Source: a virus (Duplodnaviria; Caudoviricetes). Taken from it: DNA of 64,000 bases. Shown here piece after piece: positions 6,675 through 61,313 of the stretch. Where the stretch lies: the IMG/VR virus record IMGVR_UViG_3300033069_001247, positions 1-64,000 of that record; one strand, given 5' to 3'. How positions within the stretch are numbered: the first letter of the stretch is position 1; each line of letters opens with the position of its first letter. The notes under the pieces were generated by a model. It was not told the origin of the DNA. It made no database searches and worked only from the letters and a program-made list of their open reading frames with translations. Both the position numbers and the translations under genes were made by a program.

Positions 6675-6934
6675 CCTCAGTCTGTCTTAGAATGCGACCG
6701 CACCCTGTGACTGAGTCGTAACGCCGACTGGTTAGGGACCCCTGAAAACTATGGGATTGGTTGATGGGGTCGTGAGTGTCTTGCCAGATAAAATCGAACC
6801 GCAAGGCAATGGAGGTCAGATGGATGCGTTCTTGATGCCATCTACAAAGACTGTGAACACGGTCATTGGCGCCCGGCGATAGGGGATGCTGGGACGGTCA
6901 CAGGGTGTTTCAGCTTTCACAAGGATGTGACAAC

Positions 6935-9730: not shown

Positions 9731-9740
9731 CGAGGAAGCA

Positions 9741-12878: not shown

Positions 12879-13874
12879 ATGAAGACGAATCCCATGACGG
12901 TTATCATCGTCTGCCTGGCAATTGTCTGGTGGGTGAACAGTAGCGGGAACACGATGCCCATCGTGGCCCAGGCTGCAGAGTCTGCAGCACCAGCAGTCGA
13001 ATCGGAATCGACGGTTGATTATGGTGACGTACCGGCGACAGGGGCTGTGGGTGCTACGCCTGTGATCGACGGTGTAGGTGACCTGGCTAAAGCCCAGCCT
13101 GACGCGTTCGGCGATGTACCAGCTCCGCCAGAAGCCGGTTCCGCGTTTGCCAACATCCCGCCGGGTGTCGCGTCGACACCACCGGCGTCAGACTGGGTCA
13201 ATAACGTCGTGCCCGTCTTGAGTAACAACTCAGGAACGTGTGCAGTAGCAGTTGGTCCCGAGACGCTGCTGGGTGTCTACCACGGGGTCAAGTACAACCG
13301 GGCACGTGTAACGCTCAACGGGGCGGAGGTGATTACGGCTGTGCAGCATCCACCCGGTGTCAATGATTACGACCATGATGCGGCATTGCTGAAGATCCCC
13401 AACGGAAAACTGTCGTTTATGCCGACACGGGCACCGATGTACTACGAGCCTGTTACCGTTTACGGATTGGCCACCAAAACAAAGATGCGTGGCTTCGTGT
13501 CCGCTTATCGCTACGTCAGCTTGCTTCCCGAAACGCCGGGCGTGCGTAGCGGTGATTCTGGCGGAGCCGTAGTGGCCGACGATGGTTGTCTGGTCGGGGT
13601 TATCAGCGGTCTCGTCAAGGGCTTTGACGGGCTACCAGATAACCCCAGGATTGTGTCGTTCACCCGCGCCGATTACGTGATGCCCTATCTTCCACGTAGC
13701 GGAATGTCAGCAGCTAACCAGTCAATTCCTAACCCGGTGGGACCTGTGGACGGGCCAGCGTTCCCAGACACCCAACCAGCGGTAAATAAGAACCAGTCAG
13801 CCAACGTTCCTTCATACAGTTACCAGTGGCAATGGCAGGGGTATGGCTCTCCTCGCCGCCGCATGTTCCGGTAA
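12879..13874 (+). CDS. Trypsin-like serine protease with N-terminal membrane anchor
   Basis: TM VIIVCLAIVWWV; acidic Pro/Ala linker; triad YHGV, DAALL, GDSGG; LVGVISG. Confidence 0.85.
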   Translation: MKTNPMTVIIVCLAIVWWVNSSGNTMPIVAQAAESAAPAVESESTVDYGDVPATGAVGATPVIDGVGDLAKAQPDAFGDVPAPPEAGSAFANIPPGVASTPPASDWVNNVVPVLSNNSGTCAVAVGPETLLGVYHGVKYNRARVTLNGAEVITAVQHPPGVNDYDHDAALLKIPNGKLSFMPTRAPMYYEPVTVYGLATKTKMRGFVSAYRYVSLLPETPGVRSGDSGGAVVADDGCLVGVISGLVKGFDGLPDNPRIVSFTRADYVMPYLPRSGMSAANQSIPNPVGPVDGPAFPDTQPAVNKNQSANVPSYSYQWQWQGYGSPRRRMFR

Positions 13875-16308: not shown

Positions 16309-16680
16309 ATGCGGGTCGGCAGTCTGCAGAAGTATTATGCTGACCATGGTGGCCCCCAGCACGGGGGCCATCTGTCATGGCCAGGAACGCAAGAAGGCTT
16401 CCCGGTTCGCGGCGAGCCTGCTCATCTCCGCCAGTCAGAATATCAAGGCCTGACACACGTACTGGATTACAAGTCCGGTGCGTTTCGCATGTGGGTGCCG
16501 GAAGAGAAGGCCGCTTTTGATGATGTCATGGATCACATCGTCAATGGGTGGTACGCACAGCATAAACGCATAGACCACTTCAGTCTCGAATACGGGGCGC
16601 CATTGATCTGGCTGGAATGGCTGCAGATCTACGGCGAGATCCCCAACAGCAAAGCACCAGGAGCGCCCAATGTCGTCTAG
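16309..16680 (+). CDS. Hypothetical protein
   Basis: 123 aa, aromatic-rich, tightly packed with its neighbours. Confidence 0.6.
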   Translation: MRVGSLQKYYADHGGPQHGGHLSWPGTQEGFPVRGEPAHLRQSEYQGLTHVLDYKSGAFRMWVPEEKAAFDDVMDHIVNGWYAQHKRIDHFSLEYGAPLIWLEWLQIYGEIPNSKAPGAPNVV

Positions 16681-17674
16681 TCCGGTGTACAACGATCCGA
16701 CTTCTCAGGCAATGGCTAAAGAAGTTGCCGTCCGAAACGTGATGAAGATGCTGGGGGTTGGAGCCGCGGCAGGTGTTGGTATCCGCGGTGTCATGGGGCT
16801 GGGTGCGATGATGAGCAACCAAGATCTGCCTGTGATGCCCAGTAATAACCTGCCGCATACTTTGCGAATCCAGCGCAGGCCACAAGAGCGACAAAGCAAC
16901 GGTTTGCCTGCCATGCCGAAGTTCGCAATGGCCTTGCCGCCTATGTTGCAGTCCGGGATAGATATGGCCCGGACCGGACTCAACAACGTCAGCAACAGTG
17001 TGCAGACGGCAGCGGGTAAGGCAGGTGATTTTCTGGGTAAACTCCCGGAGAAGATCGTCAAGACTGTTGCCCCGCATACACCGGATACGCATACACGGAA
17101 CCCTTCGCTGGATGAATGGAGCATGCCTGCAGGGGCACTGGCGCTTGGCGGCGGTGGTTACGCCGGATACAAAGCATTGGATTGGCTGCTCGGTAAAGAG
17201 CGAAGCAGCACAGGGGCTCGCGAACTGCAGGATGCCGAGGACGAGTACCATCAAGCACTGGCCGCACAGTATCAGGCCGCCATGATGGGAAAGCAGGCTG
17301 GGGATGATCTCGGGCTGACCGCGTTGGCTGACCAGTACATCAATGACCCTGATAGTCTGAAACCGGTTGATACCGGTATGCAGAAGGAGGCGTTCCTGCC
17401 ATCCATCCTGGGCAAAATTTTCCCGCAGTTGGATTCGGCTTATGCCAATATGCCGTTTGTTGGTCATGATCGCTGGCAGGCATTCAAGGGGGCGGTTAAC
17501 ACCGCGTCAACGGCAGCTCTGTTGGGCGCCGGAAAAGTAACGTATGATTGGGCCAAGGGGCAGAACCGACAGGAGCTGCTACGTAAAGCACTGGCTCAAC
17601 GGCAAATGGCCCGCCAACGGCTTTCACCGCCACCACTCGTAGCGATCAACGAGGACGACCAGGATGGAACCTGA
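16670..17674 (+). CDS. KxA/Gly-zipper protein immediately upstream of RNAP
   Basis: MLGVGAAAGVGIRGVMGLG, ALALGGGGYAGY; PKFAM, GKQAG, QKEAF motifs; overlaps the RNAP start. Confidence 0.6.
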   Translation: MSSSPVYNDPTSQAMAKEVAVRNVMKMLGVGAAAGVGIRGVMGLGAMMSNQDLPVMPSNNLPHTLRIQRRPQERQSNGLPAMPKFAMALPPMLQSGIDMARTGLNNVSNSVQTAAGKAGDFLGKLPEKIVKTVAPHTPDTHTRNPSLDEWSMPAGALALGGGGYAGYKALDWLLGKERSSTGARELQDAEDEYHQALAAQYQAAMMGKQAGDDLGLTALADQYINDPDSLKPVDTGMQKEAFLPSILGKIFPQLDSAYANMPFVGHDRWQAFKGAVNTASTAALLGAGKVTYDWAKGQNRQELLRKALAQRQMARQRLSPPPLVAINEDDQDGT

Positions 17675-20600
17675 AAGCAGCATTCTCGGATCACTCCCTG
17701 ATCCGACAACTGAACTGCCTGCGGCTCAGCATCAGCAAATTACCCCTGCGTTACCACCGGCCACTAAGCCGGTGGTACCGTCGTTTCGTAACTTCGGCGA
17801 TACGCAGCGAACGCGGCAATTGATTTTTGACAACGTGCTGAAGGCCGCTCAGGAAATTGAACCTGTCCAGAACCAGCGACACAGTTTGTCGATCGAGAAC
17901 CCCCGGTGGGCAGGTGCAGACAGCTATTCCATTGCTGAGCAGAAGCAAGCAATTCTCAGCCGCGGTACGCTGGGGCGAAAGCTGGTTGGTGATTTTGTCA
18001 TGCGTGATCTGAACGGTGCCGAAATCGGTCGTCGCAGCACGCAGTTGGCTCGTGTCCCTTACATGACAGATAGAGGTACATTCATCGTTGGCGGCAACGA
18101 ATATACGATGGCTCATCAGATGCGGCTTCGTCCTGGCGTGTTCACCCGTAAAAAGCAAAATGGGGAGCTTGAAAGCCATGTCAACGTGTCCAAAGGTGCC
18201 GGTCATCACGTCTACATCGACCCTGCCTCGGGTGTGTTTCGAATTGCCATCGGGCAAGCCAAAATCCCGCTGGTCCCACTCTTACGAGCTATGGGTGTCA
18301 GCGACGGACAGCTTCGCGAAGCCTGGGGGAATTCACTTACAGCGGTGAACATGCAGCATGCCGATCCACAGGCCATCAAAAAGCTGCACGACCGACTCTT
18401 TCGGTATGGACGTAAAAATGAAGCCGGAGAGGCAGCAGACGCCGCGGTCGCGAGGGCATTTAGCGAAATGACACTGGACCCCGAGGTGACCAAGCGAACC
18501 CTGGGGCAGCCATTTTCAAATGCCAACGCCGATATGCTACTGGCTGTGACCAAGAAACTACTGCGTGTATCTCACGGTGAAGATGAAACAGACGATCGTG
18601 ACGCACTGGCCTATCAAAAGCTGGTCGGTCCGGAAGACATCTTTGCAGAGCGACTTCGACGAGCAAAGAATGTCACGCGACAGTTGCTTTGGAAAGCCTC
18701 CGCACGGGGTAATCTGGACAACATGGGATCGAATCCGTACGACGATTCGATTCGCGACGGGTTACTGGGCTCCGGACTTGGGCAACCACTCGGTGAAATC
18801 AATCCTGCCGACATCTTTGACCAACAGGTACGCGTCACACGGATGGGGCAAGGCGGTATCACCAACATGGACGCCGTGCCTGACGAGGCCCGGTCAGTTC
18901 AGCCGTCACAATTTGGGTTTGTGGACTTCCTCCGGACGCCTGAGTGCTATGATTACGAAACTGAAGTCATGACCAGGCAGGGTTGGAAATACTGGCCTGA
19001 TGTTGTCGCGACTGATGAGCTGGCTTGTCAGGTTGATGGGCGGTTGGAGTATCACGTACCACACAAGCTGCATTGTTATCCGTATATCGGTGAACTTTGT
19101 GGTGTGGACACTGGTCGTATTCGGTACCTCGTAACGCCGAACCACCGGGTCTGGGTTCGCAGTTTCCATAAAACTGCTACATATCATTTCGAAGATGCCG
19201 ATCGTGTAAAGAATTTCCGGAAGGTTCAATCTGGCGGCTTCCTGCCGTACATCGGCAGTGATGAGACTGTGTTCCGATTGCCGAAGGTCGCGATCGCACA
19301 CAACCCGCAACAAGTTGCAATGTCAACCACGCTTAACGCTGTCGATTCAATTGATATCGACGACTGGGCTGAGTTTATGGGTTGGTGGCTGGGCGAAGGA
19401 TCATCTTGTTACAAAGAAAGTGACGGCAACGGCAATGTGCTTTACCGCGTCCGTATTTCGCAAAGTCTTGAAGCTAATCCAGCGAACTACGCACAGATTG
19501 ACCTGTTGCTTTCACGCTTACCGTTCAAGTCGTACAAAGACTCGGACAACTGCGGATTTACGATTCCAGGTAAACAGCTAACAGCTTACCTGCGACAGTT
19601 TGGTGGAAGTCACGAACGACACATTCCAGAATCATTGCTACGATCGCGAGTATCTGCGAGACGTAGACTGTTCGAAGCGTTACTGCTGGCTGAGGGTCGC
19701 CGTGATCGTCGCGATGTACGCACACAGTTCTGTACGACAAGCAGGCAGCTCGCAACCGATTTTCAGCGATTGGCGTTCTCACTCGGCTACTCGACGCAGT
19801 ACGCATGGGAGCCTGACGACCGGGAACAATCAAATCATGGCGGGGCACATATTATCCATGTGCATAAGCTAAATGAGCATCAAGTGTTTACCAAACGATC
19901 ACCGTCACAAGGTGGTTGTGGTGATCATTACCGGCAGGCGTATAACGACAATGTGTATTGTGCCACTGTCCCTGGTGGGTTGCTTTACGTGCGGCGTCAG
20001 AACGGACTTGGTCACTGGTCTGGTAATAGTGGCAAGGTCGGCGTGGACGCTCGCCTGGCCGGTGGTGCTGTCAAAGGTGATGATGGTCAGATCTATACCA
20101 AGGTCCGTATGACCGACGGCACAGAGGCCTACAAGAACCCACAGGAGATGGCTGATGCTGTCGTAGCTTTTCCGGGTGAAATCAATCAGAACTCCTCCCA
20201 CGTAGCAGCACTGGTCAAGGGTAAAGTCCGAATGGTTCCCCGCGAAAGCGTGGACTTCGAGATCCCTGATATGGAGCACACGTTCTCGCCACTCGGGAAC
20301 ATGGTACCCAACAAGTCTGCCGTAAAGGGTCAACGCGCAGTGATGGCTGCCCGTATGATTACGCAGGCCTTGCCGCTGCGGAATGCAGAGGCCCCGCATG
20401 TACAAAGCGGCATGCCAGGGCGGACGGACCGGTCGTTTGAAGAGGAATACGCCAAGCATATGGGCGCTGTCCATGCGGACACAGCAGCCCGTATCGAAAG
20501 CGTCGACAGCGACAGCATCAACATGGTGACTGCTGATGGGCAGCGGAAGACAATCCAATTGTACAACAACTTCCCGTACAACCAGAAGACGTTCCAGCAC

Positions 20601-23600
20601 CAGACGGCGACTGTAAAGCCAGGAGATATCGTACAACCAGGACAACTCCTGGCCCGGTCAAATTTCACAGACGCCAATGGCGTCACTGCGTTGGGACTCA
20701 ATGCGCGGGTGGCCTACATTCCCTGGGGCGGGCTCAACTTCGAAGACGCCAACCTGGTCAGCGAGTCATTTGCTAAACGGGCTACGTCCGAGCATATGTA
20801 CCAGCATCAGCATGAGTGGGAGAGTAACGATCAGACGGGTAAAAATGCCTTTGTCTCGATCTTCCCATCCACGTATGACAAGAAGATGCTGGAGAATTTT
20901 GATGACAGCGGTGTGATCAAACCCGGGACTACCGTGAAGCACGGAGATCCATTGATCCTGATCGCCCGGCAGAAAGAGCGGAACAAGAAATCACTGCTGC
21001 AGGGTACCAAGCCCAGCTTTCAGGATATGACGCAGACTTGGGACCATGAAGACGACGGTGTCGTTACCGATGTGGTGCATACCGATAAGGGTGTCTCCGT
21101 GGTGGTGAAGGCCAGCGTTCCGATGCAGGTCGGCGATAAGCTGTGTTTCGATGAAGACACAGAGGTACTTACACGCCGAGGCTGGATACGTGTTGGTGAA
21201 CTGACATTCGATGATGAGATCTGTACGTTGCAGCGTGGTGATAACATTGTGTATCACCACCCGACGGCACTGCATCAGTACGCCGTCGGCGGAGATATGT
21301 ATCGCATCAAGAGCCAACAAATTGATCAATTTGTGACTGTTGATCATGCGCAGTATGTGCAGCATCGCGGTAGCGACGACTTTGTACCAACACGTGCGTC
21401 ATCTGTGCTCGGTAAACGGGTGCGATATAAGAAGAATGGTAACTGGCGAGGCAGAAGTCCTGCGTGCGTTATCATTCCTGGTGTCGACGTACGTGCGGGT
21501 CAATCCGGTAACGGTACACGTCGATTATCAGACATCACACTTACGACTGAGACATATTTGACAATTCTGGGTGCGTTCATTTCTGAAGGTAATCTTGTAG
21601 ATAACCCACAGAGTGGGTCCTACGGGATTGACATCACACAGATCAAGCAGCCAAATCGATCACAGATTATGGCTGAACTCGAACGTCTCGGCATCAAGTT
21701 CAATGAACACGGTGTAGGTACAAAATTGCGTATCTACAGCAAAGTATTGTTGAAACATTTTGAACAATTTGGACGAACCGCCAGTGAGAAACATCTACCA
21801 GCGACTATCTTTGACTGGTCGAAATCTGATTTGCAGATTCTGTTCCGTTGGTTGATGTGGGGCGACGGGTATAGGCACCATACACAACGACCGGTGAACT
21901 ATACGACGACATCACCGCAACTGGCGGATGACGTTCAACGCTTATGTCTGCACATTGGTTATGCAGCCAATGTGGTCAATGATATGCCCGCTACGGTACA
22001 AACAATCAAAGGTAAACAATATGAGTGTTTACCAAGATACAGTGTGCGTGTTGTGACGACTAAGCTCACACCAATGGTGAACCACGGACATACAAAAAAA
22101 CAACGTGTGCAAGAGGAGTACATTGTCAAAGATTACGATCGTCCGGTGTTCTGCGTTACTGTACCTGGGCATGTGTTGTATGTACGTCGGAATGGTAAGC
22201 CTTGCTGGAGTGGCAACTGTGGTCGTTATGGCGATAAAGGTATCATTTCTCACATCATTCCTGATGATCAGATGCCTGTTGGCGCTGACGGCAAACCTTT
22301 CGAAATTTTGTTAAATCCTTTGGGCGTAATATCAAGAACCAATCCTGCACAGATGATTGAAGCCGCCCTTGGAAAGATTGCTGCTCAGCGGGGGCAGGCT
22401 TACAAGATGCCGGACTTCCAGAACCAGGACGATCTGGTCGAGTACGCACTGAGCGAACTGCAGAAGGCTGGAATGAGCGATACGGAGAGCATCACAGATC
22501 CGACCAACGATCGGAAGATTCCAGATGTATTTACCGGTAATCGCTGGTTTATGAAGCTCCATCACACCTCGGAGTCCAAGGCCCAGGGCCGCGGACTCGG
22601 AGCATACACCGCAGAAGGTGTCCCGGCGAAGGGGGGACCAGAAGGGGCTAAACGTATCGGGATGCTGGAGACGAACGCTTTGCTGTCTCACGGGGCCACA
22701 GAAGTGCTGCGTGGTGGTAGTCTGGTGCGTGGGCAGTCAAATCCACAGTTCTGGGCACAGTACATGAGCGGTTTCAAGCCGCCGACACCAGAGGTCCCTG
22801 GGGTTTACCACAAGCTGGTTAACAATCTGCGGGCGTCAGGTATAAATGTCATCCGGGACGGTACGCGGACGCATATCATGGCCCTGACAGACAAAGACAT
22901 CGACCAGATGGCAAGTAACCGTGAACTTCGGAACGTGGAAACGGTCGATTGGAAGAACATGGAGCCCGTCAAGGGTGGGTTGTTCGATCAAGAGTTGACC
23001 GGTGGGCACTCGACATCAGCAGGCGGCGGTAACCGCTGGAGCTACATCAAGCTGCACGAACCGTTGCCAAGCCCCGTGATGGCGGAGCCTATTCGCCGAG
23101 TGCTTGGTATCACCGAAAAGAAGTTTGAGGATGTACTGGCCGGGCGTGAGCAGCTCAACGGTAGCACTGGTCCTGGCGCGATTGGTCACGCGTTGAAGTC
23201 CATCAACGTGGACAATGAGATCGCACGCGCCCGTGAAGAGATCAAGAGCAACAAGCGGACTGCTCGAGATGCGGCAGTCCGCCGGTTGGGTTACCTCAAG
23301 AACGCCAAGCGGTTGAATATCCATCCGGGCGACTGGATGTTGTCCAAGGTTCCTGTGTTGCCGCCCGCATTTCGACCTGTATCAACGATGGGCGCAAATA
23401 AGCTGCCACTGGTAGCCGACGCGAACTACCTGTACAAAGAACTCTGGGACGCCAATCAAAGTCTGAAAGACCTATCGTCCCACCTGGACGAGAATGACAT
23501 CGGTGACGAACGATTGAACGTCTACAAGGCATTCAAGGCAGTGACGGGTCTTGGTGATCCGACGCATGCCAAGAATCAAGAACGAAAAGTGAAAGGGATC

Positions 23601-24281
23601 CTCCAGCATGTCTTTGGATCATCGCCCAAACTCGGACTTGTCCAACGTCGGCTCCTGGGTTCGACGACCGATCTCGTCGGTCGTGCGGTTATTGCACCTG
23701 ATCCTGATCTCGATATGGACCAGGTGGGTATCCCTGAAAACCAAGCCTGGACAATCTATCGCCCAGTGCTCATCCGAAACCTTGTCCGAAAAGGCGTCCC
23801 TCGCCTGCAGGCCGCTAAAGCCGTTGAAGAGAAAACCCCGCTCGCTCGGCAGGCACTCCTCTCGGAAATGGATGAAGGCGTGGTAGTGATCAACCGGGCT
23901 CCGACGCTGCATCGTTATGGGATGATGGCAGCGAGACCCCGTCTGGTGAAAGGAAACGTACTCAAGATCAGCCCGCTTGTGGTTGGCGGTTTCGGGGCTG
24001 ATTTTGATGGCGATGCCATGCAGTATCACGTCCCTGTCGGTGACGATGAGAAGAAGGAAGCCATCGAGAAGATGCTACCCAGCAGAAATCTGTTGTCGGC
24101 TGCCACGTTTAAGGTTCACATATTACCTACACAAGAGTATATTGGTGGGCTGTACGAAGCGACGGCACGTAAAGACTTGATGAACAAGCCTATCGTGTTC
24201 CGTACGAAACGTGACGCCATACGTGCCTACAAAGAAGGACGCATCAATGTCGACAGACAAATCCACATCATCGAAGACTAG
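17664..24281 (+). CDS. rpoB: Phage multisubunit RNA polymerase: beta subunit fused to N-terminal (RpoC1-like) part of beta', with two inteins
   Basis: beta motifs RGTFIVGGNE, NFEDANLVS, GDKL|CGRYGDKG, LNPLGVISR, MKLHH, KRIGMLETNAL; then beta' motifs GGLFD, VPVLPPAFRP, GRAVI, NRAPTLHR, GADFDGDAM, PTQEYIGGLY in one frame. Confidence 0.95.
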   Translation: MEPESSILGSLPDPTTELPAAQHQQITPALPPATKPVVPSFRNFGDTQRTRQLIFDNVLKAAQEIEPVQNQRHSLSIENPRWAGADSYSIAEQKQAILSRGTLGRKLVGDFVMRDLNGAEIGRRSTQLARVPYMTDRGTFIVGGNEYTMAHQMRLRPGVFTRKKQNGELESHVNVSKGAGHHVYIDPASGVFRIAIGQAKIPLVPLLRAMGVSDGQLREAWGNSLTAVNMQHADPQAIKKLHDRLFRYGRKNEAGEAADAAVARAFSEMTLDPEVTKRTLGQPFSNANADMLLAVTKKLLRVSHGEDETDDRDALAYQKLVGPEDIFAERLRRAKNVTRQLLWKASARGNLDNMGSNPYDDSIRDGLLGSGLGQPLGEINPADIFDQQVRVTRMGQGGITNMDAVPDEARSVQPSQFGFVDFLRTPECYDYETEVMTRQGWKYWPDVVATDELACQVDGRLEYHVPHKLHCYPYIGELCGVDTGRIRYLVTPNHRVWVRSFHKTATYHFEDADRVKNFRKVQSGGFLPYIGSDETVFRLPKVAIAHNPQQVAMSTTLNAVDSIDIDDWAEFMGWWLGEGSSCYKESDGNGNVLYRVRISQSLEANPANYAQIDLLLSRLPFKSYKDSDNCGFTIPGKQLTAYLRQFGGSHERHIPESLLRSRVSARRRLFEALLLAEGRRDRRDVRTQFCTTSRQLATDFQRLAFSLGYSTQYAWEPDDREQSNHGGAHIIHVHKLNEHQVFTKRSPSQGGCGDHYRQAYNDNVYCATVPGGLLYVRRQNGLGHWSGNSGKVGVDARLAGGAVKGDDGQIYTKVRMTDGTEAYKNPQEMADAVVAFPGEINQNSSHVAALVKGKVRMVPRESVDFEIPDMEHTFSPLGNMVPNKSAVKGQRAVMAARMITQALPLRNAEAPHVQSGMPGRTDRSFEEEYAKHMGAVHADTAARIESVDSDSINMVTADGQRKTIQLYNNFPYNQKTFQHQTATVKPGDIVQPGQLLARSNFTDANGVTALGLNARVAYIPWGGLNFEDANLVSESFAKRATSEHMYQHQHEWESNDQTGKNAFVSIFPSTYDKKMLENFDDSGVIKPGTTVKHGDPLILIARQKERNKKSLLQGTKPSFQDMTQTWDHEDDGVVTDVVHTDKGVSVVVKASVPMQVGDKLCFDEDTEVLTRRGWIRVGELTFDDEICTLQRGDNIVYHHPTALHQYAVGGDMYRIKSQQIDQFVTVDHAQYVQHRGSDDFVPTRASSVLGKRVRYKKNGNWRGRSPACVIIPGVDVRAGQSGNGTRRLSDITLTTETYLTILGAFISEGNLVDNPQSGSYGIDITQIKQPNRSQIMAELERLGIKFNEHGVGTKLRIYSKVLLKHFEQFGRTASEKHLPATIFDWSKSDLQILFRWLMWGDGYRHHTQRPVNYTTTSPQLADDVQRLCLHIGYAANVVNDMPATVQTIKGKQYECLPRYSVRVVTTKLTPMVNHGHTKKQRVQEEYIVKDYDRPVFCVTVPGHVLYVRRNGKPCWSGNCGRYGDKGIISHIIPDDQMPVGADGKPFEILLNPLGVISRTNPAQMIEAALGKIAAQRGQAYKMPDFQNQDDLVEYALSELQKAGMSDTESITDPTNDRKIPDVFTGNRWFMKLHHTSESKAQGRGLGAYTAEGVPAKGGPEGAKRIGMLETNALLSHGATEVLRGGSLVRGQSNPQFWAQYMSGFKPPTPEVPGVYHKLVNNLRASGINVIRDGTRTHIMALTDKDIDQMASNRELRNVETVDWKNMEPVKGGLFDQELTGGHSTSAGGGNRWSYIKLHEPLPSPVMAEPIRRVLGITEKKFEDVLAGREQLNGSTGPGAIGHALKSINVDNEIARAREEIKSNKRTARDAAVRRLGYLKNAKRLNIHPGDWMLSKVPVLPPAFRPVSTMGANKLPLVADANYLYKELWDANQSLKDLSSHLDENDIGDERLNVYKAFKAVTGLGDPTHAKNQERKVKGILQHVFGSSPKLGLVQRRLLGSTTDLVGRAVIAPDPDLDMDQVGIPENQAWTIYRPVLIRNLVRKGVPRLQAAKAVEEKTPLARQALLSEMDEGVVVINRAPTLHRYGMMAARPRLVKGNVLKISPLVVGGFGADFDGDAMQYHVPVGDDEKKEAIEKMLPSRNLLSAATFKVHILPTQEYIGGLYEATARKDLMNKPIVFRTKRDAIRAYKEGRINVDRQIHIIED
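18945..20027 (+). mobile_element. Intein 1 with LAGLIDADG endonuclease (361 aa) in beta at TPE|SGKVG
   Basis: Starts CYDYETEV, ends YVRRQNGLGHWSGN, +1 Ser; blocks FMGWWLGEG and LFEALLLAEG; removal restores an ETPE-G-x-x-G-like motif. Confidence 0.93.
21144..22217 (+). mobile_element. Intein 2 with LAGLIDADG endonuclease (358 aa) in beta at GDKL|CGRYG
   Basis: Starts CFDEDTEV, ends YVRRNGKPCWSGN, +1 Cys; blocks ILGAFISEG and LFRWLMWGDG. Confidence 0.93.
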
Positions 24282-24843
24282 CACTTGTAAATGGTGTGGT
24301 GTGAATAAGTGCCAACCGTTGGCCAGCCGTTGTCGGTCGTGTCAGGATAGGGTCAATGCCCGCCAGAAGGAGTTGCGGGCAGCAAGAACAGCAGCAGGTC
24401 TCTGTAAGTGCGGTCGCGAGTCGCCGCGAGAAGGGAAGGCTGATTGTCAGCTATGTTTTTCTGAAATGAGTGTGTCACAGAACGTCACGTATCGGAAACG
24501 CAAGCTGGCTGGTCTTTGTAGTTGTGGTGCTGAACCAGACAAAGGATACAAATCGTGCGGCATATGTCGCAACAACTGGAAACGCAAAGGCGAAGTACTT
24601 CGTAGACGCGTGTTCAATCATTACGGGCTGAAGTGCGCCTGCTGTGACGAGGAAACCTATGAGTTCTTGGAGCTTGATCACATTGATGGCGGCGGCAATG
24701 ATCACAGGCGTAGTGTGGGTGCTACATACAGGTGGGTGATACGCAACAACTTCCCACCCGGCTTCCAGACATTGTGTTCCAACTGCAACCGAGCCAAGTT
24801 TCGTTACGGGGTATGCCCACACCAGAAACAGAAAAAGAAGTGA
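24247..24843 (+). CDS. Free-standing HNH endonuclease with N-terminal Cys-rich zinc-finger repeats
   Basis: HYGLKCACC...LELDHIDGGG...FQTLCSNCNRAK; repeats GLCKCG..CQLC, GLCSCG..CGIC; overlaps the 3' end of the RNAP gene (alternative ATG 24211). Confidence 0.85.
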   Translation: MSTDKSTSSKTSTCKWCGVNKCQPLASRCRSCQDRVNARQKELRAARTAAGLCKCGRESPREGKADCQLCFSEMSVSQNVTYRKRKLAGLCSCGAEPDKGYKSCGICRNNWKRKGEVLRRRVFNHYGLKCACCDEETYEFLELDHIDGGGNDHRRSVGATYRWVIRNNFPPGFQTLCSNCNRAKFRYGVCPHQKQKKK

Positions 24844-24925
24844 CAGCTTTCGTTGCACAACCGCATTCGATAGTATTTCAGTCGACATTCGTGGCTGATC
24901 AGGAAGATTGAAACGGAGATCAATT

Positions 24926-25630
24926 ATGGCAAGGATCAACCCAGCATTGATGGAGCTGGCCAAACACAAGACGTGGTCGTTGATTAAGTCAGCGGCTGTG
25001 CCACCCGGTGGTGCTCCGATGGATCCTGCTGCAGGCGGTGCTCCTCCGATGGATCCTTCCATGATGGGCGGTGCCCCTCCTGGCGGCGCCCCAGCAGGAA
25101 TGCCCCCTGCCGGTGCCCCTCCGATGGATCCATCCATGATGGCTGGTGGCGGTGCCCCGATGGCACCTCCGATGGATCCTTCCATGATGGGTGCGCAGCC
25201 CGGAATGATGCCAGGAGCAGCCCCCCAAAAGCTGAAGCCCGAGCAAATGATGCAGATGCTCGACTTCCGCCTGTACAACATGCAGCAGCAAGTGACTGCT
25301 ATTATGAATCACCTCGGCATCACCGTACCAGCTGGTGCGTTGGTAACACCTCCCGGGTCGCCCACACCGGTTGCTGAAGCTGCTTTACCGGGTGGTCCGC
25401 AAGATCCAGGCCCGCCACAGGCGGCGGGCGGTGGTGGTGATGCGGGCGGCGGGGCTTCGGCGATTTCATCGATCGCACCTATTCAAGGGGCCAGCCCGGA
25501 AACCGCGAAGCAGGCCAGTGTTTCTGTGGGTTCACCATACCGGGCAGTGGCATCAAACGATTTCTCCACAAGTGGCACGATCACGGATCGCATCGCAGCT
25601 GTCCGGGCCTTGCTGGCATTGCAGAGCTAA
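24926..25630 (+). CDS. Pro/Gly/Met-rich low-complexity protein with KxA motifs
   Basis: IKSAA and AKQAS flank PPMDPSMMGG repeats and a helical segment (MMQMLDFRLYNMQQQV). Confidence 0.65.
   Translation: MARINPALMELAKHKTWSLIKSAAVPPGGAPMDPAAGGAPPMDPSMMGGAPPGGAPAGMPPAGAPPMDPSMMAGGGAPMAPPMDPSMMGAQPGMMPGAAPQKLKPEQMMQMLDFRLYNMQQQVTAIMNHLGITVPAGALVTPPGSPTPVAEAALPGGPQDPGPPQAAGGGGDAGGGASAISSIAPIQGASPETAKQASVSVGSPYRAVASNDFSTSGTITDRIAAVRALLALQS
25013..25191 (+). repeat. Imperfect coding repeats CTCCGATGGATCC(TTCCATGATGG), four copies
   Basis: Copies near 25014, 25043, 25118 and 25166 encode PMDP/PPMDPSMM. Confidence 0.8.
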
Positions 25631-25633
25631 CCC

Positions 25634-25885
25634 ATGAAGATTCAGATCCACCGCAATCTGCGTGACGTTCAGACACTGGATGTCACGCGGGTTGTGGTGC
25701 TCGACGAATACGATAACCCTGTCGCCCTGGCCATTGCCCTAGATGACGGAATCATCCTGGCCGAGACGGCAGGTAACCCAGTCGAGTTCAATTCCTTACT
25801 GCGAAGCGTAGGGATCAACAAGACAGTAGTTGTTCACGGTGTCAAGCAAGACCCGCTTCCTACGATCAAACTTTCCGGGCCGTGA
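25634..25885 (+). CDS. Small hypothetical protein between RNAP genes
   Basis: 83 aa, beta-rich; its stop lies 1 nt before the beta'-C ATG. Confidence 0.6.
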   Translation: MKIQIHRNLRDVQTLDVTRVVVLDEYDNPVALAIALDDGIILAETAGNPVEFNSLLRSVGINKTVVVHGVKQDPLPTIKLSGP

Positions 25886-25886
25886 C

Positions 25887-28800
25887 ATGCTCAATACGAC
25901 ATTGGGACAGTTGATGGTCAACCAGGCTTTACCTGCGGAATTACAAGACCATCAACGTGTCTTGGATAAGAAGGGGATCAAGGCACTGCTGCAGCAGGTC
26001 GCCGATAAACACCCAGACAAGTACAGAGAAATTGCCAAAAGACTTTCTGATATCGGACGTGATGCAGCATTTACGACCGGCGGGTATTCTTTCGGACTGG
26101 GTTCGCTGCGACAATCTGTGGCCGCCCGTAAGATGCGACATGAACTGACATCCAAGCTGCAGGAGATTTACGCATCTCAAGAGCCGGACGATGTCAAAGA
26201 ACAAAAAATCCTGATGACAGTGGGCGGATATCAGAAGCAACTGTCGCAGGATGTAATGAAAGAATCACTCGATGTCCGCAACCCGCTGGCCCTGCAAGTC
26301 TTATCCGGTGCGCGGGGTAATCACACGAATCTGAACTCGCTTCGCGGTGCCGACCTGCTGTACACCGACCATCGTGGTCGAGCAATGCCGATTCCGGTCA
26401 CCCGTAGCTATTCCATGGGGCTCCGCCCGTACGAATACTTTGCGGGTGCCTTCGGTGCCCGCAAAGGTGTGATCGATTTGAAATGCCTTGGTGGTGATAC
26501 ACCAGTGGTTATGGCAGATTGGTCAGTTAAAAAAATCTGCGATATCAAGCAAGGTGATTACGTGATGGGTTCGGATACAGCTGGACGTCTGCGACCTGTC
26601 AAAGTACTCAATGTTTTCGATAACGGAAAACGTGAATGTTACAATTGGCGTTTTCGTGTTGGATCATGTCGCAAACGATTTGCTGATGTTGTGGCAACTG
26701 CTGACCACAAAATTCTCGCACAGGTTCGTGCTGGTCGACCTGGATCAACATATGCGTATCGCTCAAGCTATACGCCGTTGCCCTTGCCGTTACATACCGC
26801 AAAATTGCAAAAGAAGGCAACCAAAAATGCATTCGTGGCGTGGCCGGCTCGCGGAGAAGTCAATTCCGAAAACGGTATTGCGGAGCCGCGAGCGATGCTG
26901 CTTGGGTTGCTACTTGGTGACGGTTACACACCGGAGAAAACAGGCCATACATTGTCATGCGCTGATCAGTGTTTGATTGACGACACTGCTACGTACCTCG
27001 CATCATTGAATCTGAAACTGAATCCTCCAAAAGATGGGTACAGTCATCGACTTGTTGAGATCGTTAGATCAAAACAAAAAATGGAAGTCCGTAACAACAG
27101 AAACACATTTGCCGGGACGGGTAATCCGGTGCGACAATGGTTGCACGATGTCGGATGTACCGGAAAACTTGCACACGAAAAACAATTGCCAGCTGTCGTT
27201 TGGCAGTGGAATCGTGACTCCATCTGTCAGCTGATTGGTGGGTTGATCGCAACAGACGGCACAATTGAAGTGCGAAATGATGGTTGTACTGTCAAATTCA
27301 AATTGACAAGTCTGCAAATTGTTTCACAGGTTCAACGACTGTTGGAGTTGCGGTTGGGTATCTGGTGTACACCAATACGTCGTATTCCTGTTGAGACAAT
27401 ACCGCTAGGTAACTATGACCAGTGGGAGATTACGTTCTCACACCCAGAGGCCATTCGTCGTTTTATTGACTTGGTGTATGTGCCAGGTATCAAACATCAC
27501 CAGTTGCAAGAAGGGTTGCGGAAACTGTCTGCTGAACCGCGTAGTGCAGAGATTGGGTTTAAGATTCAATCACGCGAAGCTGTAGGTATGATTCAAACAT
27601 ACGACATTGAAGTTGATCATCCTGACCATCTCTTCTTATTAGAGAATGGTCTTGTCGTATCAAACTCGGCAACACAGGACGCCGGTTTCTTTGCTAAACA
27701 GCTGGTGCAGGCTGCACATCGATTGTTGGTGTCACAGATTGATGACGAACGCGAGTATGATCATTCAAACCCGCGTGGTTACCCAGTCGATACAGGGGAT
27801 AATGATACCGAAGGTGCATTACTGGCTCATCCTATTGGTGGTTACAAACGCAATACTGTGCTCACGCCAAAGATCCTGAAAGAATTGCGGGCCAATGGTA
27901 TGCGTGAAATTCTGGTGCGTAGTCCTACCGTCGGCGGGCCTGCCGATGGTGGTGTTTACGCACGTGATGTTGGCGTCCGTGAACGTGGTGGTATCGCACC
28001 TCTCGGTGATTATGTCGGCGTCGCAGGGGCGCAGGCTTTAGCTGAGCCAGTTACCCAAAGTCAAATTTCAAGTAAGCATAGCGGCGGAGTGGTCGGTGCG
28101 TCTGCTGGGGCTATTTCTGGGTTCAAGTACATCAATCAGCTGGTGCAGTCCCCCAAGGTGTTTCAGGGCGGGGCCGTGCATTCACAGAAAGACGGTCGCA
28201 TCACCAACGTACGACCGGCCCCGCAGGGCGGCACCTATGTCACTGTGGAAAATGAGGACCATTACATCCCACACGGTATTCAGATCCAGGTCAAACGTGG
28301 CGACACGATCGAAGCTGGTGACGTACTGACGGAAGGGACACCGCAACCGGCGGAGATCGCCAAACACAAGGGTGTAGGTGAAGCCCGGTACTACTTCACC
28401 AATACTTTTCGAAAGGCCCTTACCGATTCGGGCACATACGGGAACCGCCGGAATATCGAACTACTGGCCCGAGGGTTGATCAACCATGTGCGGCTGACGG
28501 ACGAGGTCGGTGACGGGATCCCTGGTGACGTTGTACCATACCAGTTACTGGAATCACGATGGCAGCCCAGGGAAGGCCACACGATCAATGCACCAGAACG
28601 GGCAGTCGGTCAGTATCTGGAACGCCCCGTGCTGCATTACACTGTTGGTACGCGTGTGCGACCGTCTATGCTGTCGAAGTTCAAGCAGTACGGCGTAGCC
28701 AATCTGGCTGTACATAAAGACCCACCACCGTTCGAACCCGAGATGATTCGTGGAATGGCGAACGCAGCTAACGATCCCGACTGGATGACAAGGATGCTTG

Positions 28801-28949
28801 GCAGCTATCAGAAGAACAGTATTCTGGATGCTGCACACAACGGCGCAGTCTCTGACGAAGCAGGTAGCAGCTTTGTTCCAGCGCTGGCCCGCGGCGTGGA
28901 TTTCGGGCGTGTTGGACTAACCAAAGGATGGAAGCCGCAGACACCGTAA
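25887..28949 (+). CDS. rpoC: Phage RNA polymerase beta' C-terminal (RpoC2-like) subunit with intein
   Basis: SGARGN, FGARKGVIDLK|SATQDAGF (bridge helix), VRSP, GVAGAQALAEPVTQSQISSKHSGG (trigger loop), VKRGDTIEAGDVLTEG, RRNIELLARG. Confidence 0.92.
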   Translation: MLNTTLGQLMVNQALPAELQDHQRVLDKKGIKALLQQVADKHPDKYREIAKRLSDIGRDAAFTTGGYSFGLGSLRQSVAARKMRHELTSKLQEIYASQEPDDVKEQKILMTVGGYQKQLSQDVMKESLDVRNPLALQVLSGARGNHTNLNSLRGADLLYTDHRGRAMPIPVTRSYSMGLRPYEYFAGAFGARKGVIDLKCLGGDTPVVMADWSVKKICDIKQGDYVMGSDTAGRLRPVKVLNVFDNGKRECYNWRFRVGSCRKRFADVVATADHKILAQVRAGRPGSTYAYRSSYTPLPLPLHTAKLQKKATKNAFVAWPARGEVNSENGIAEPRAMLLGLLLGDGYTPEKTGHTLSCADQCLIDDTATYLASLNLKLNPPKDGYSHRLVEIVRSKQKMEVRNNRNTFAGTGNPVRQWLHDVGCTGKLAHEKQLPAVVWQWNRDSICQLIGGLIATDGTIEVRNDGCTVKFKLTSLQIVSQVQRLLELRLGIWCTPIRRIPVETIPLGNYDQWEITFSHPEAIRRFIDLVYVPGIKHHQLQEGLRKLSAEPRSAEIGFKIQSREAVGMIQTYDIEVDHPDHLFLLENGLVVSNSATQDAGFFAKQLVQAAHRLLVSQIDDEREYDHSNPRGYPVDTGDNDTEGALLAHPIGGYKRNTVLTPKILKELRANGMREILVRSPTVGGPADGGVYARDVGVRERGGIAPLGDYVGVAGAQALAEPVTQSQISSKHSGGVVGASAGAISGFKYINQLVQSPKVFQGGAVHSQKDGRITNVRPAPQGGTYVTVENEDHYIPHGIQIQVKRGDTIEAGDVLTEGTPQPAEIAKHKGVGEARYYFTNTFRKALTDSGTYGNRRNIELLARGLINHVRLTDEVGDGIPGDVVPYQLLESRWQPREGHTINAPERAVGQYLERPVLHYTVGTRVRPSMLSKFKQYGVANLAVHKDPPPFEPEMIRGMANAANDPDWMTRMLGSYQKNSILDAAHNGAVSDEAGSSFVPALARGVDFGRVGLTKGWKPQTP
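26484..27665 (+). mobile_element. Intein 3 with LAGLIDADG endonuclease (394 aa) in the beta' bridge helix
   Basis: Starts CLGGDTPV, ends HLFLLENGLVVSN, +1 Ser; blocks LLGLLLGDG and LIGGLIATDG. Confidence 0.93.
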
Positions 28950-29020: not shown

Positions 29021-29030
29021 ACATGGAGGT
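29021..29030 (+). promoter_or_regulatory. RBS with ACATGGAGGT (CsrA/Rsm consensus match)
   Basis: The same 10-mer occurs at 39707 and 41930; 7 nt before ATG 29038. Confidence 0.5.
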
Positions 29031-29037
29031 TATTCGG

Positions 29038-35460: not shown

Positions 35461-35495
35461 GCCATTGTCAATTGCAGTCAGGGAGGCTGCGACAC

Positions 35496-58883: not shown

Positions 58884-60507
58884 TCACGCCGTCATCAAGG
58901 TAAAGAATACCCGGGCCGTGATCGGCAAGCATACGTTCAATGACGTGGTGCAGTACGTATCCGGCTGGGGATTGAACAGTATTCCGATGGCATCACTACA
59001 GGTGGCTGTTGGTCGTAATGTCAACGGCAATGCACTGGCAAAAATTCATCACGCTGCCAAGGACTTGCGGAATCAGCAAAAGGCAGAAGTCTATGTGACC
59101 TTTGAAGTCACTGATGTGGAAGATGCCGATCCAGGTGTCGAGACAGGCGAGATCAAAGTTTTTGAGGGAACTGTTGTCGGTACTGGCTGGCAGCGGGGTC
59201 CTAATGGTGGTTACTTCACGATCAACCTGTTGCATTGGTTAGGTGAACTCAACAACTCATCAGCTATCTCGGCATCGCTACATCCTGGTTGTCCGGCAGA
59301 CATGACATTCCCGGCTGTGTTTCCGGCGTTCGGATTGAACACGACAACACCGAAGGTCACACCGATTCCATCGTTCGTTCCAGATATCAGCGGTGATGTG
59401 GCTGGTGGTTTTGATGACCTCTGGGGCAATGTGTTTTTACCGTGGCTGAATACGATCGCCAGCGATGACGCTTTCGATCGGGCTTATGATGACGCCAATG
59501 CGAAAGGGAACCCTAACGTTATTGCAGCGCTTAAACGGATGGTGGTGAACGCAGACGGGACACCGTTAGCTGTTGATCTGAACGGAGCCTCTGCAGCAGT
59601 CTTTGCTGATTCGCTACGACTGGCGCTGGTCAACGAGATCGGCAGCAACTGGATCAACACGACGCTCTGGGGCAAGATTATCGGTGAATGGGCACCGGCT
59701 TACTGGTTCTCTGTTGTACCCCGCGTAGAAGACGCCTTGGTTGTACCGTTTACAGGGGGCCTGCAGGGAGCGCCATGGGCCGTCATTGGTGACGAAGATT
59801 ATGACAGCGCGGACATGAACGCACAGCTGCAGCAAGTGCTGCGTGGTGTCAGCATTGTGCATCCTATCACGACATCCACATCATTCGATCTTAATCTCGG
59901 CATACCACAAGCATCCCGCAGTGGGGCACTGGGTATCTACCAGCCCGACGATATCAAAACAGGTATGATCCTGTTCAAAGATGCACCAAAGTGGCTCTGC
60001 AATACCAACGTCGCCCACTTGATGTCGGCAGACGCTGAAGGGGTGTTGGATGCTGAAGTCACAACCGCTTTGGATGAGATCAATTCTGCTGCCGTTACAA
60101 ACCGCAGAGACGAGGCCAACGACCTGGGACTGCTTCGTAATGTAGCCTCCGCATATGCTCACCAGTGGTATGTACTGGAGTCACTGAAAGGCAGAACAGG
60201 TGAGGTTGCCGGTAAATTGCGATTCGATATCGCCCCGGGCTCCAACGTTCTGGTTGTGGCGGGAGGGGCCAAAAACGTCCCGGATGCTAAGAACGTCACG
60301 CAGAACATCTTTGCGACGGTAGTCCAGGTGTCGTACGTGATTAACGCTGAAACACGGCAAGCCGGTACGGCTTTCAGCTTGGCCCACATTCGCACAGAAG
60401 CAGAAAACGAATTGGAGTCTACGTCTGTCGCCAAGCCGCCGTTGTACCAGAAAGCCTGGTCTGGTGCTAAACTGGTCGTTGCAGCTCCTGGACCTGAAAA
60501 GGCGTAA
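58876..60507 (+). CDS. Baseplate hub-like protein (gp27/gpD-like)
   Basis: 543 aa; IKVFEGTVVG; C-terminal GEVAGKLRFDIAPGSNVLV...ATVVQVSYVI hub pattern. Confidence 0.55.
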   Translation: MSSHAVIKVKNTRAVIGKHTFNDVVQYVSGWGLNSIPMASLQVAVGRNVNGNALAKIHHAAKDLRNQQKAEVYVTFEVTDVEDADPGVETGEIKVFEGTVVGTGWQRGPNGGYFTINLLHWLGELNNSSAISASLHPGCPADMTFPAVFPAFGLNTTTPKVTPIPSFVPDISGDVAGGFDDLWGNVFLPWLNTIASDDAFDRAYDDANAKGNPNVIAALKRMVVNADGTPLAVDLNGASAAVFADSLRLALVNEIGSNWINTTLWGKIIGEWAPAYWFSVVPRVEDALVVPFTGGLQGAPWAVIGDEDYDSADMNAQLQQVLRGVSIVHPITTSTSFDLNLGIPQASRSGALGIYQPDDIKTGMILFKDAPKWLCNTNVAHLMSADAEGVLDAEVTTALDEINSAAVTNRRDEANDLGLLRNVASAYAHQWYVLESLKGRTGEVAGKLRFDIAPGSNVLVVAGGAKNVPDAKNVTQNIFATVVQVSYVINAETRQAGTAFSLAHIRTEAENELESTSVAKPPLYQKAWSGAKLVVAAPGPEKA

Positions 60508-61313
60508 TGATGCCATTCAAATCCATCATCGACCAATCACTACCATTCGCCTCCGAAGGTTCCAGCGATGCTACGCGGTTGGAGCCGGATTTCGCGGATG
60601 ATTTCCACGCATGGAAAGGCAATGACACACCAGTCACACGGGGAGCGTTGCTGAAACGAGTATCCCCGGTGATTGATCGCGCTGTGGTCTCCTACGCAGG
60701 AGCTGATGCCAGCCCTTCGGTACGCAGTCGTGCCAAGCTGATGACGCTACAGGCCTTCAAAACATACGACCCCGCCCGTGGAACTATGCGGACGCACCTG
60801 CTATCGCAATTGCAGGGTCTGCGACGTACGGCCGCGCAGAGCAATCAAATCATCTCTGTCCCTGAACGGGTAGCCCTGGATCGGCAGCATCTGCGAGAAG
60901 CAGAAGAAGAGCTACGTGATAAATTCGGGCGTGAGCCCAGCGACATGGAGGTCGCAAATTACACGGGGTTGTCGATGCGCCGTCTCGGGTACGTGCGGCA
61001 GGCCGCCCCGGGTACGAATACAGGGTCGATCCTGGACGAGGAGGGTGATGTCTACAGCCCGGCCTCTAATGTCCCGGGAGCACACAGCCAGGACGATGCA
61101 TGGGCAGACATGGTCTACTACGACCTGGGGGACACAGATCGCACGATCATGGAATACACTTTGGGTCTACGAGGGGCACCTGTGTTGTCCAACGTAGACC
61201 TTGCTGCAAAACTCGGTGTGTCACCTGGAGCCGTCAGCCAGCGGAAGGCCAAGATTCAGGCAATGCTGGACGCCAGATCTGAAATGGATCCTTTTGGAGG
61301 ACGTAATGCCTAA
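60507..61313 (+). CDS. Sigma-70 family RNA polymerase sigma factor
   Basis: Region 2 AFKTYDPARG, region 3 ISVPER...FGREPSDMEVA, region 4 LGDTDRTIMEYTLGL...LAAKLGVSPGAVSQ. Confidence 0.88.
   Translation: MMPFKSIIDQSLPFASEGSSDATRLEPDFADDFHAWKGNDTPVTRGALLKRVSPVIDRAVVSYAGADASPSVRSRAKLMTLQAFKTYDPARGTMRTHLLSQLQGLRRTAAQSNQIISVPERVALDRQHLREAEEELRDKFGREPSDMEVANYTGLSMRRLGYVRQAAPGTNTGSILDEEGDVYSPASNVPGAHSQDDAWADMVYYDLGDTDRTIMEYTLGLRGAPVLSNVDLAAKLGVSPGAVSQRKAKIQAMLDARSEMDPFGGRNA

Follow-up and report, generated by a model that had tools for sequence, protein, structure and literature searches.

A bacterial-type phage RNA polymerase encoded as a beta-beta' fusion and a separate C-terminal chain of beta'

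The virus record IMGVR_UViG_3300033069_001247 (Duplodnaviria; Caudoviricetes) carries two genes for a multisubunit RNA polymerase (RNAP) with unusual subunit boundaries: one encodes beta fused to the N-terminal half of beta' (beta'N), and the other encodes the C-terminal half of beta' (beta'C). The window analysed here is the first 64 kb (64,000 nucleotides) of this 86.8-kb IMG/VR record, for which CheckV estimates a completeness of 43%, and nearly all of its long open reading frames (ORFs) lie on the + strand. The features discussed are listed in Table 1.

Table 1. Polymerase genes, inteins, intervening genes, sigma factor gene and upstream genes of the window
Feature	Position	Strand	Description
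Beta-beta'N fusion gene	17664..24281	+	precursor of 2205 aa; 1486 aa without its two inteins
Intein 1	18945..20027	+	361 aa (aa 428-788); in beta between TPE and SGKVG, E. coli beta ~565, beside the rifampicin pocket
Intein 2	21144..22217	+	358 aa (aa 1161-1518); in the beta catalytic barrel between GDKL and CGRYGDKG, E. coli beta ~1066
Beta-to-beta' join	22848..22868	+	last conserved beta motif (SGINV) and beta' N-terminus within a few residues of each other
HNH endonuclease, free-standing	24247..24843	+	PHROG 2255 'HNH endonuclease', 4.8e-8; H-N-N motif in the translation
Pro/Met/Gly-rich protein	24926..25630	+	234 aa; homologue in the spacer of 61/67 loci
Conserved 83-aa protein	25634..25885	+	homologue in the spacer of 49/67 loci
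Beta'C gene	25887..28949	+	precursor of 1020 aa; 626 aa without its intein; bridge helix, trigger loop and C-terminal domains
Intein 3	26484..27665	+	394 aa (aa 200-593, counted from the methionine at 25887); in the bridge helix between DLK and SATQDAGF, E. coli beta' ~790
Sigma-70-family factor	60507..61313	+	268 aa; in the baseplate gene block, 31 kb downstream of the polymerase
Response-regulator receiver-like domain	6866-7612		weak/moderate Pfam match
2H-phosphoesterase and SET domain protein	7622-8497		weak/moderate Pfam match
Matrixin and peptidoglycan-binding domain	9720-10580		weak/moderate Pfam match
Papain-like protease	12010-12852		weak/moderate Pfam match
Trypsin-like protease	12879-13874		weak/moderate Pfam match

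The first gene contains, in a single frame, Pfam Rpb2 domains 2 and 6 of beta followed by Rpb1 domains 1 and 2 of beta' (Rpb2_6, 3e-47; Rpb1_2, 4.8e-24), with the beta part extending to about aa 1729 and the beta'N part occupying about aa 1735-2205. BLASTP of the piece after intein 2 aligns its first 211 residues with E. coli beta 1067-1337 of 1342 (E 3e-18) and residues 298-684 with E. coli beta' 160-550 (E 4e-45). E. coli beta 1337 thus falls at aa 1729, and in PDB alignments residue ~20 of B. subtilis beta' falls 20 residues further on; since the end of beta and the N-terminus of beta' align back to back, the fusion is direct, with practically no linker. Identity to bacterial beta and beta' is about 30% and the catalytic motifs are intact, which bears out a preliminary description of this DNA as encoding a clearly bacterial-like enzyme. 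The GADFDGD catalytic loop lies at aa 2110-2116, within the double-psi barrel of beta', and ADFDGD is kept in 66/68 sequences (the 67 related loci introduced below and the window). Both active-site lysines of beta are also present, in the motif that intein 2 interrupts. The stop codon follows 31 residues past the P-x-Q-x-x-x-x-G-L-Y stretch, and the C-terminus of the chain corresponds to about E. coli beta' 553.

The second gene matches Rpb1 domains 4 and 5 in Pfam (Rpb1_5, 7e-16) and E. coli beta' 699-939 in BLASTP, while PDB alignments begin at residue 663 of M. tuberculosis beta' and at the N-termini of cyanobacterial and plastid RpoC2. The bridge helix is aligned to beta' chains in the PDB; the trigger-loop motif, with its K-H pair, is read from the sequence, and the loop lacks an SI3 insertion. 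The N-terminus of beta'C corresponds to about E. coli beta' 569-570, with a TT-x-G motif at the equivalent of E. coli 572, such that only a surface hairpin of about 15 residues (E. coli beta' 554-568) is missing between the two chains. Residues 6-14 of cyanobacterial and plastid RpoC2 align to residues 23-26 of phage beta'C, and these alignments put the phage cut some 15 residues upstream of that in cyanobacteria, within the same variable linker.

The preliminary description had one ORF running from beta through the clamp and catalytic loop of beta' and stopping after the PxQ...GLY region, and a second supplying the bridge helix, trigger loop and jaw. The Pfam order, the E. coli alignments and the position of the stop agree with the former, and for the latter Pfam and PDB alignments give the bridge helix, trigger loop and C-terminal domains. 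Its comparison with the cyanobacterial RpoC1/RpoC2 split holds for a nearby point and not for the same one. Two details are corrected: the second gene begins at ATG 25887 and not at TTG 25830, as its homologues start within four residues of this methionine (nearly all of the 66 loci with both genes, the start codon mostly falling exactly there), and the two ORFs are not adjacent but separated by 1605 nt holding three genes, which went unmentioned.

The layout is conserved. When IMG/VR was scanned with the C-terminal portion of beta'C, 67 related loci were found on contigs of up to 235 kb, 66 of them with both genes, and all 66 show the fused and split arrangement with the spliced beta-beta'N ending at the same residue. 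These loci are 50-69% identical, and the gaps between their two genes range from 850 to 5400 nt. A tblastn search across the spliced fused sequence found one continuous frame in most related loci, broken only at intein-sized insertions, contig ends and one apparent frame shift (L052). The same C-terminus is found in 261/268 proteins of the fused-gene family. The best 120 matches of a word-index search were all fusions, of 1440-1510 aa or longer where inteins are present, and the best 150 in a HMMER search of 1.84 billion cluster representatives (50% clustering) all belonged to the fused family (E <= 1e-190), the complete ones reaching 3350 aa and some shorter entries resembling fragments. On this distribution the split appears to be ancestral in the clade.

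That the layout might be an artefact of assembly or gene calling, or a decaying remnant of captured host rpoB and rpoC, is suggested by the nature of the record, a single metagenome contig with a CheckV completeness well short of a whole genome. The same arrangement is nevertheless found in 66 viral contigs, in the 150 cluster representatives and in cultured phage genomes; the catalytic motifs are conserved and the frames intact, and the phylogenetic tree places the genes close to no sampled bacterium. The junctions are covered, with no difference, by contigs of three samples drawn from two studies: the fused-gene stop and the HNH start are spanned in another sample of the same study, and the start of beta'C in an independent river metagenome. 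Conservation and the bridging contigs of other samples together exclude an assembly artefact, and the wider explanation by artefact or decay is considered negligible. The fusion and the split are accordingly real, as first described, and the refuting possibility named there, that the junctions are assembly artefacts, finds no support in the loci and samples compared.

Of the three genes between the chains, the HNH endonuclease gene starts within the 3' end of the fused gene, overlapping it by 35 nt. Genes split by homing endonucleases exist in T4-like phages, and the division of beta' could in the same way be the recent work of an HNH insertion, an explanation that fits the placement of the HNH gene directly after the fused-gene stop and the abundance of mobile elements in the gene, with three inteins here and many in the family as a whole. 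However, an HNH gene occupies this spot in only 2/68 sequences, the window and L065, whereas beta' is split at the same residues in all sequences with both genes and also in the cultured phages Arash and D69 described below. With the split in every two-gene locus and the HNH gene in two sequences, the HNH gene is not the cause of the split, and its insertion was rejected as such. The HNH proteins of the window and L065 are 37% identical and the flanking polymerases 74%, suggesting separate or long-standing mobile insertions into a gap that already existed. A version of this explanation in which a mobile element made the split in the distant past has left no trace, and an origin by HNH insertion is regarded as very improbable.

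The other two intervening genes are part of the conserved locus. Gaps of about 960-980 nt contain only the Pro/Met-rich and 83-aa genes, and the conserved unit is therefore one of four tightly packed genes. The Pro/Met/Gly-rich protein has no Pfam or PHROG match, and its Atlas matches are to unnamed viral clusters only. The stop of the 83-aa gene lies one base ahead of the beta'C start codon and the two appear to be translationally coupled. The AlphaFold model of the 83-aa protein (pLDDT 85) has five strands and one helix. It was considered as an omega-like or other known subunit and rejected, being beta-rich and without a fold match above Z 2.5 among 48,161 chains searched with VIA-align. A hidden Markov model of the 83-aa family, run on the small ORFs that separate the two polymerase genes in Arash and in D69, found no counterpart.

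Three inteins interrupt the two genes. All have Cys1, a TxxH block, a terminal Asn and a Ser or Cys at +1, and homologues run continuously across the insertion sites; the residue before the terminal Asn is Gly, Gly and Ser in inteins 1-3, and not His. Intein 1 has TPNH as its TxxH block, a C-terminal Asn followed by Ser, LAGLIDADG-like motifs and a C-terminal block similar to that of intein 2, although the intein itself gave no Pfam, PDB or other profile match. It is missing at the exact site in 64/67 related loci. One minor contig of 106 nt in sequencing run X1 (depth 2.9 vs ~11) connects 18945 with 20037 through 8 other letters. It is an intein-1-free allele of a related strain in the same sample and suggests that the intein is polymorphic for presence and absence. 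Intein 2 (TVDH; Asn then Cys) matches Pfam LAGLIDADG_3 at 1.1e-10 and the intein parts of the DnaB, PolII and RpoA'' models of NCBIfam, and is missing in related loci. Intein 3 matches LAGLIDADG_3 (2.5e-11), Hom_end_hint, NCBIfam intein_Cterm above its cut-off and the NCBIfam models of intein-bearing DnaB and RecA; it is missing in most related loci, with L059 carrying an insertion at the same site.

Across the fused-gene family (P0003-P0270), 129/268 proteins have at least one insertion of at least 120 aa, with up to 4 per protein. The insertions occupy at least 15 distinct sites, most commonly GQGG/TPE of beta (51), the DFDGD loop of beta' (41) and the point between GDKL and CGR (16), and in the beta'C proteins of related loci the bridge helix and the trigger loop carry insertions as well. 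This family is a hot spot for inteins and offers an unusually rich set of inteins in the active-site motifs of a polymerase.

Several parts of the bacterial enzyme are reduced or missing. About 90 residues of bacterial beta', including the N-terminal zinc-binding domain, are replaced by a Gly-rich stretch of about 28 residues. With the inteins removed, neither beta' part (22848-28949) contains a cysteine and beta contains one; both bacterial zinc sites are thus missing. The beta flap and beta-i9 insertion region, E. coli 885-1047, has only 43 residues in the phage. In a 29%-identity alignment anchored on GPGG/GQGG, the rifampicin-pocket positions D516, H526 and S531 of E. coli correspond to G, Q and T (window ~18770-18860, beta aa 369-399), and from these replacements the enzyme is predicted to be rifampicin-insensitive. 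Five complete or nearly complete relatives of 197-235 kb, two of them with terminal repeats, allow whole genomes to be surveyed, the window record itself being incomplete. Each of the five has one beta' barrel, and a search confined to Pfam models (PF01000, PF01193, E <= 0.1), which matched 14/14 control genomes, found no alpha N-terminal domain in any of them.

The sigma-70-family gene proposed from the first inspection of the sequence is present. Its product matches Pfam Sigma70_r3 at 8e-6 (26.3 bits vs a cut-off of 25.3), and the Pfam models of sigma-70 regions 2 and 4 had no match in the record. A profile of its family matches SigA, RpoD and RpoS chains in the PDB (E 1.6e-10), with SigA aligned from region 2.3/2.4 through region 4. 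A helix-turn-helix is detected at aa 223-250. The AlphaFold model has a pLDDT of only 67, and its top Foldseek matches are all sigma-70-family proteins, with E down to 8e-8 over 240-280 columns. The gene is kept in 5/5 complete relatives at 43-48% identity and is homologous to gp10 of Arash, and the clamp-helix segment of beta', on which sigma region 2 docks, is conserved in sequence. One of the five, G005, has a second sigma gene (G005:C1:124048-124242, Sigma70_r2 1.1e-9) besides its homologue of the window sigma (G005:71826-72536). The ORF upstream of the polymerase (16670-17674) was considered as a sigma or other polymerase factor and rejected, having no Pfam, PHROG or PDB match.

A tblastn search of GenBank phages found a single match crossing the beta/beta' join in four cultured phages, Arash, D69, D148 and D181. 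In Salmonella phage Arash the chains are gp206 (1525 aa), which follows the portal gene, and gp216 (606 aa), both annotated 'RNA polymerase subunit beta'; in Vibrio phage D69 they are 'hypothetical proteins' of 1527 and 609 aa, and D148 and D181 have the same layout. In the published record of these phages the two genes go by the names 'beta' and 'beta-prime', or 'hypothetical', with no mention of the layout. Megablast of the whole polymerase region against GenBank phages gave no match. The window is syntenic with Arash over its virion genes: the fused chain corresponds to gp206, beta'C to gp216, 29023-31515 to gp218, 35370-37016 to gp222, 39722-40654 to the major capsid protein gp226, 45856-48777 to gp236, the sigma gene to gp10 among tail and baseplate genes, and 62292-63929 (Baseplate_J) to gp13. 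Pairwise identity to the clade is 30% for Arash and 31% for E. coli; Arash being as distant as E. coli, the layout and the virion-module synteny are a stronger argument for common descent than identity.

A phylogeny, one of the checks proposed in the preliminary description, was built as a maximum-likelihood tree of the beta' barrel region (27 rows, LG+C20). It sets the fused lineage apart from the sampled bacteria: eleven clade members, Arash and D69 lie on one side of a branch supported at 100/99 and twelve bacteria on the other (98/98), with Rhizobium phage RHph_Y65 and Vibrio phage Va2 also across the 100/99 branch from the fused lineage.

The cultured phages bear directly on whether the enzyme travels in the virion. 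Mass spectrometry of Arash virions gave 3516 spectra for gp206, the most of any protein and above the capsid protein, 1210 for gp216 and 467 for the sigma gp10 at 100% coverage (PMC10585845). The Arash authors weigh packaging for early transcription against co-purification of abundant enzymes; the fusion and split go unremarked and the enzyme uncharacterised in that paper (PMC10585845). Cultured members of the lineage and virion proteomics are thus already published, with the layout itself unanalysed there, and no relative has been characterised biochemically; prior characterisation of closely related enzymes of this architecture, named in the preliminary description as a ground for refutation, thus does not apply.

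In the window and in Arash alike, the polymerase genes lie on a single strand within the late head/tail gene block, a placement that suits a protein made late and packaged. From this position and from the synteny with Arash, whose chains and sigma are found in virion preparations, the holoenzyme is probably packaged. The same two-chain enzyme might instead be made after infection and left out of the virion, serving as a middle/late polymerase like the non-virion enzymes of phiKZ and AR9, while the host enzyme, perhaps redirected by the phage sigma, transcribes the early genes. This would accord with the remark of the Arash authors that highly expressed enzymes may contaminate virion preparations, and with the presence of only one polymerase set, to which all stages of transcription would fall if the host enzyme were unused. 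The rank of gp206 above the capsid protein by spectra and the full coverage of sigma argue against it, as does the late gene placement, and a non-packaged enzyme is held to be rather unlikely.

The interpretation favoured here is a phage-encoded bacterial-type two-barrel RNAP core of two chains. Chain 1 would supply the whole of beta and beta'N, that is the clamp, the clamp helices and the catalytic barrel with the Mg-binding DFDGD loop, and chain 2 the bridge helix, trigger loop and C-terminal domains. Both precursors would first splice out the three homing-endonuclease inteins, which are seated in the most conserved active-site motifs. The enzyme, without alpha and zinc sites, would be the sole RNAP in the complete genomes of the clade, and the beta-beta' tether may take the place of alpha as the assembly platform. 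Chain 2 may then dock on chain 1 across the surface hairpin, in the manner of gamma and beta' of cyanobacteria. The phage sigma would bind the conserved clamp helices and guide the enzyme to phage promoters, and the holoenzyme would be packaged and delivered with the DNA, allowing transcription without the host polymerase. The split would be ancestral to the lineage and the HNH gene in the gap a later mobile passenger. That the two chains form a functional core is highly probable; carriage in the virion, argued by analogy with Arash, is somewhat favoured; and the scheme as a whole, with assembly, sigma use and packaging as proposed, is considered likely.

A number of points weigh against this interpretation. 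Splicing of the three inteins is predicted from their motifs. A very divergent assembly factor could take part, the two conserved spacer proteins being candidates, and the phage sigma could redirect the host polymerase instead of serving the phage enzyme. The beta flap, which binds sigma region 4, appears much reduced, with the 43 residues noted above in place of E. coli 885-1047. The bacteria in the tree are a narrow set (E. coli, two Clostridia and nine bacteria from metagenome-assembled genomes (MAGs), possibly CPR/Patescibacteria), and the phage branches are long. The case for packaging is drawn from a relative of about 30% identity, for which co-purification with virions is allowed by its own authors.

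Host-type promoters and terminators around the polymerase genes were no more numerous than expected by chance. A candidate promoter motif, TTTAGATATCA, was counted in the complete relatives G001-G005. G002 has 10 copies (at L108:18998-20000, L109:494-2842 and elsewhere), all on the strand of the downstream genes, and none of the reversed control; 6/10 lie inside 4 kb among small genes. A hairpin and T-run often precede the copies, with CTAAATA and GCATAT boxes downstream of them. Over both strands, G002 has 23 copies of the 8-base core TAGATATC, vs ~3.5 expected from composition. There are 4 copies of TTTAGATATCA in G003 and none in G001, G004 or G005, and in the window it is not enriched (9 matches at <=2 mismatches vs 6.2 expected). 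TTTAGATATCA is a candidate phage promoter in G002 and is unusable as evidence for the phage of the window. In RNA run X12, short identical contigs lie over the polymerase genes; DNA carry-over is possible and they were not counted as expression.

Upstream of the polymerase, between 6866 and 13874, are several genes with Pfam matches that are unusual in phage (Table 1). Contigs of the clade of up to 175 kb (L079-L088) have been binned with MAGs as Gemmataceae, Nanopelagicales, Aquaspirillum, Methylococcales, Planctomycetales and Pacearchaeota. Such contigs are evidently phage DNA placed in the wrong bins, from which inference of a host is unsafe, and assignment of a host through the bins, which contradict each other and are uninformative, was rejected.

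Fusion and division of the large subunits both have precedents. The C-terminus of beta and the N-terminus of beta' adjoin in the enzyme; Helicobacter and Wolbachia have natural full beta-beta' fusions, and fusions engineered in E. coli are functional. The Helicobacter and Wolbachia proteins resemble the phage chain in having the C-terminus of beta in frame with the N-terminus of beta', but there beta' is whole and alpha, omega and the zinc sites are retained, whereas the phage beta' is split. The enzyme of cyanobacteria and plastids shares with that of the phage a beta' whose division follows the catalytic barrel and falls in the same variable surface linker, halves that reassemble and sigma-70-type initiation, and E. 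coli beta' split in this region also reassembles. The phage enzyme differs in its fusion of beta to the N-half, in having TT-x-G on the C-half and in its lack of a large SI3, zinc sites and alpha. The PDB score of the cyanobacterial gamma subunit (166.6 bits) is not above those of Bacillus (168.4) and Thermus (166.9), and thus points to no special kinship with cyanobacteria.

The enzymes of phiKZ and AR9 resemble the one described here in being phage-encoded two-barrel polymerases without alpha; they lack omega as well, one of their sets is packaged in the virion, and in both phiKZ-type enzymes beta' is split after the catalytic barrel at a position that coincides with the cyanobacterial split (Sokolova et al. 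2020, PMC7598289). The preliminary description had them split differently, which is true of beta, in 2-3 chains there, and not of beta', which is cut in the same region as here (PMC7598289). They further differ in their two sets, virion and non-virion, in lacking a sigma homologue and in being far more diverged, whereas this lineage has one set, with beta intact and fused, and a sigma-70-family factor. As the beta' cut falls in the same linker as in phiKZ-type and cyanobacterial enzymes, the lineage could be an intermediate. It may even represent a third major class of phage multisubunit RNAP beside phiKZ/AR9 and YonO/crAss, a minimal zinc-free and alpha-free two-chain enzyme with a sigma-70-type factor, virion-carried, injected and rifampicin-insensitive, and possibly the missing intermediate between bacterial and many-chain jumbo-phage enzymes, although this is a speculative proposal and rather doubtful. 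If it were true, the hypotheses that jumbo-phage enzymes are a 'pre-LUCA relic' or were 'captured from bacteria' would become testable.

Should the proposed mechanism hold, the lineage is a natural experiment in which a bacterial-type core works without alpha and zinc through a beta-beta' tether, and it bears on the origin of phiKZ-type enzymes. The compact two-chain and sigma holoenzyme would lend itself to structural and synthetic-biology use, and Arash on Salmonella would be a tractable model for the packaging and ejection of a 240-kDa enzyme.

Reviews on jumbo phages largely equate phage multisubunit polymerases with those of phiKZ and AR9, whereas the lineage described here is a very large environmental one with cultured members, is more bacteria-like and has an undescribed layout. 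No paper describing fusion plus split was found, the jumbo-phage reviews and the 'moraphage' and marine jumbo-phage papers included, subscription journals lying outside the search. One review states that no RNAP is encoded by jumbo phages other than those of phiKZ-type group 1 and two YonO-type phages (PMC7824862), and phages without their own are said to rely on the host polymerase and phage sigma factors (PMC7598289, PMC13282480). Four cultured phages (L103, L104, L105 and L069) have bacterial-like polymerases in layouts that fall outside these reviews. Among phages of 128-207 kb with bacterial-like beta' genes, beta' is unsplit in Rhizobium phage RHph_Y65 (1127 aa) and Vibrio phage Va2 (1192 aa); Cobetia phage Carin-5 has the order sigma, beta' (1083 aa, unsplit) and beta (927 aa); and in Ralstonia phage RP13 beta' is split and annotated as 517 + 486 aa, with 2.7 kb between the parts. 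Unlike the window, these phages show no fused beta, and their genes lie in replication modules and not in the virion module. Arash, D69, D148 and D181 share the beta-beta'N fusion, the separate beta'C, the gene order of the virion module and a sigma in the baseplate block, and differ in their identity of about 30%, in other intervening genes, in having no detectable homologue of the two spacer proteins and in that no inteins were seen. The claim of a distinct phage transcription system therefore stands with respect to phiKZ and AR9, but the system is not confined to this phage, and the present layout is one variant within a poorly charted diversity of phage polymerases.

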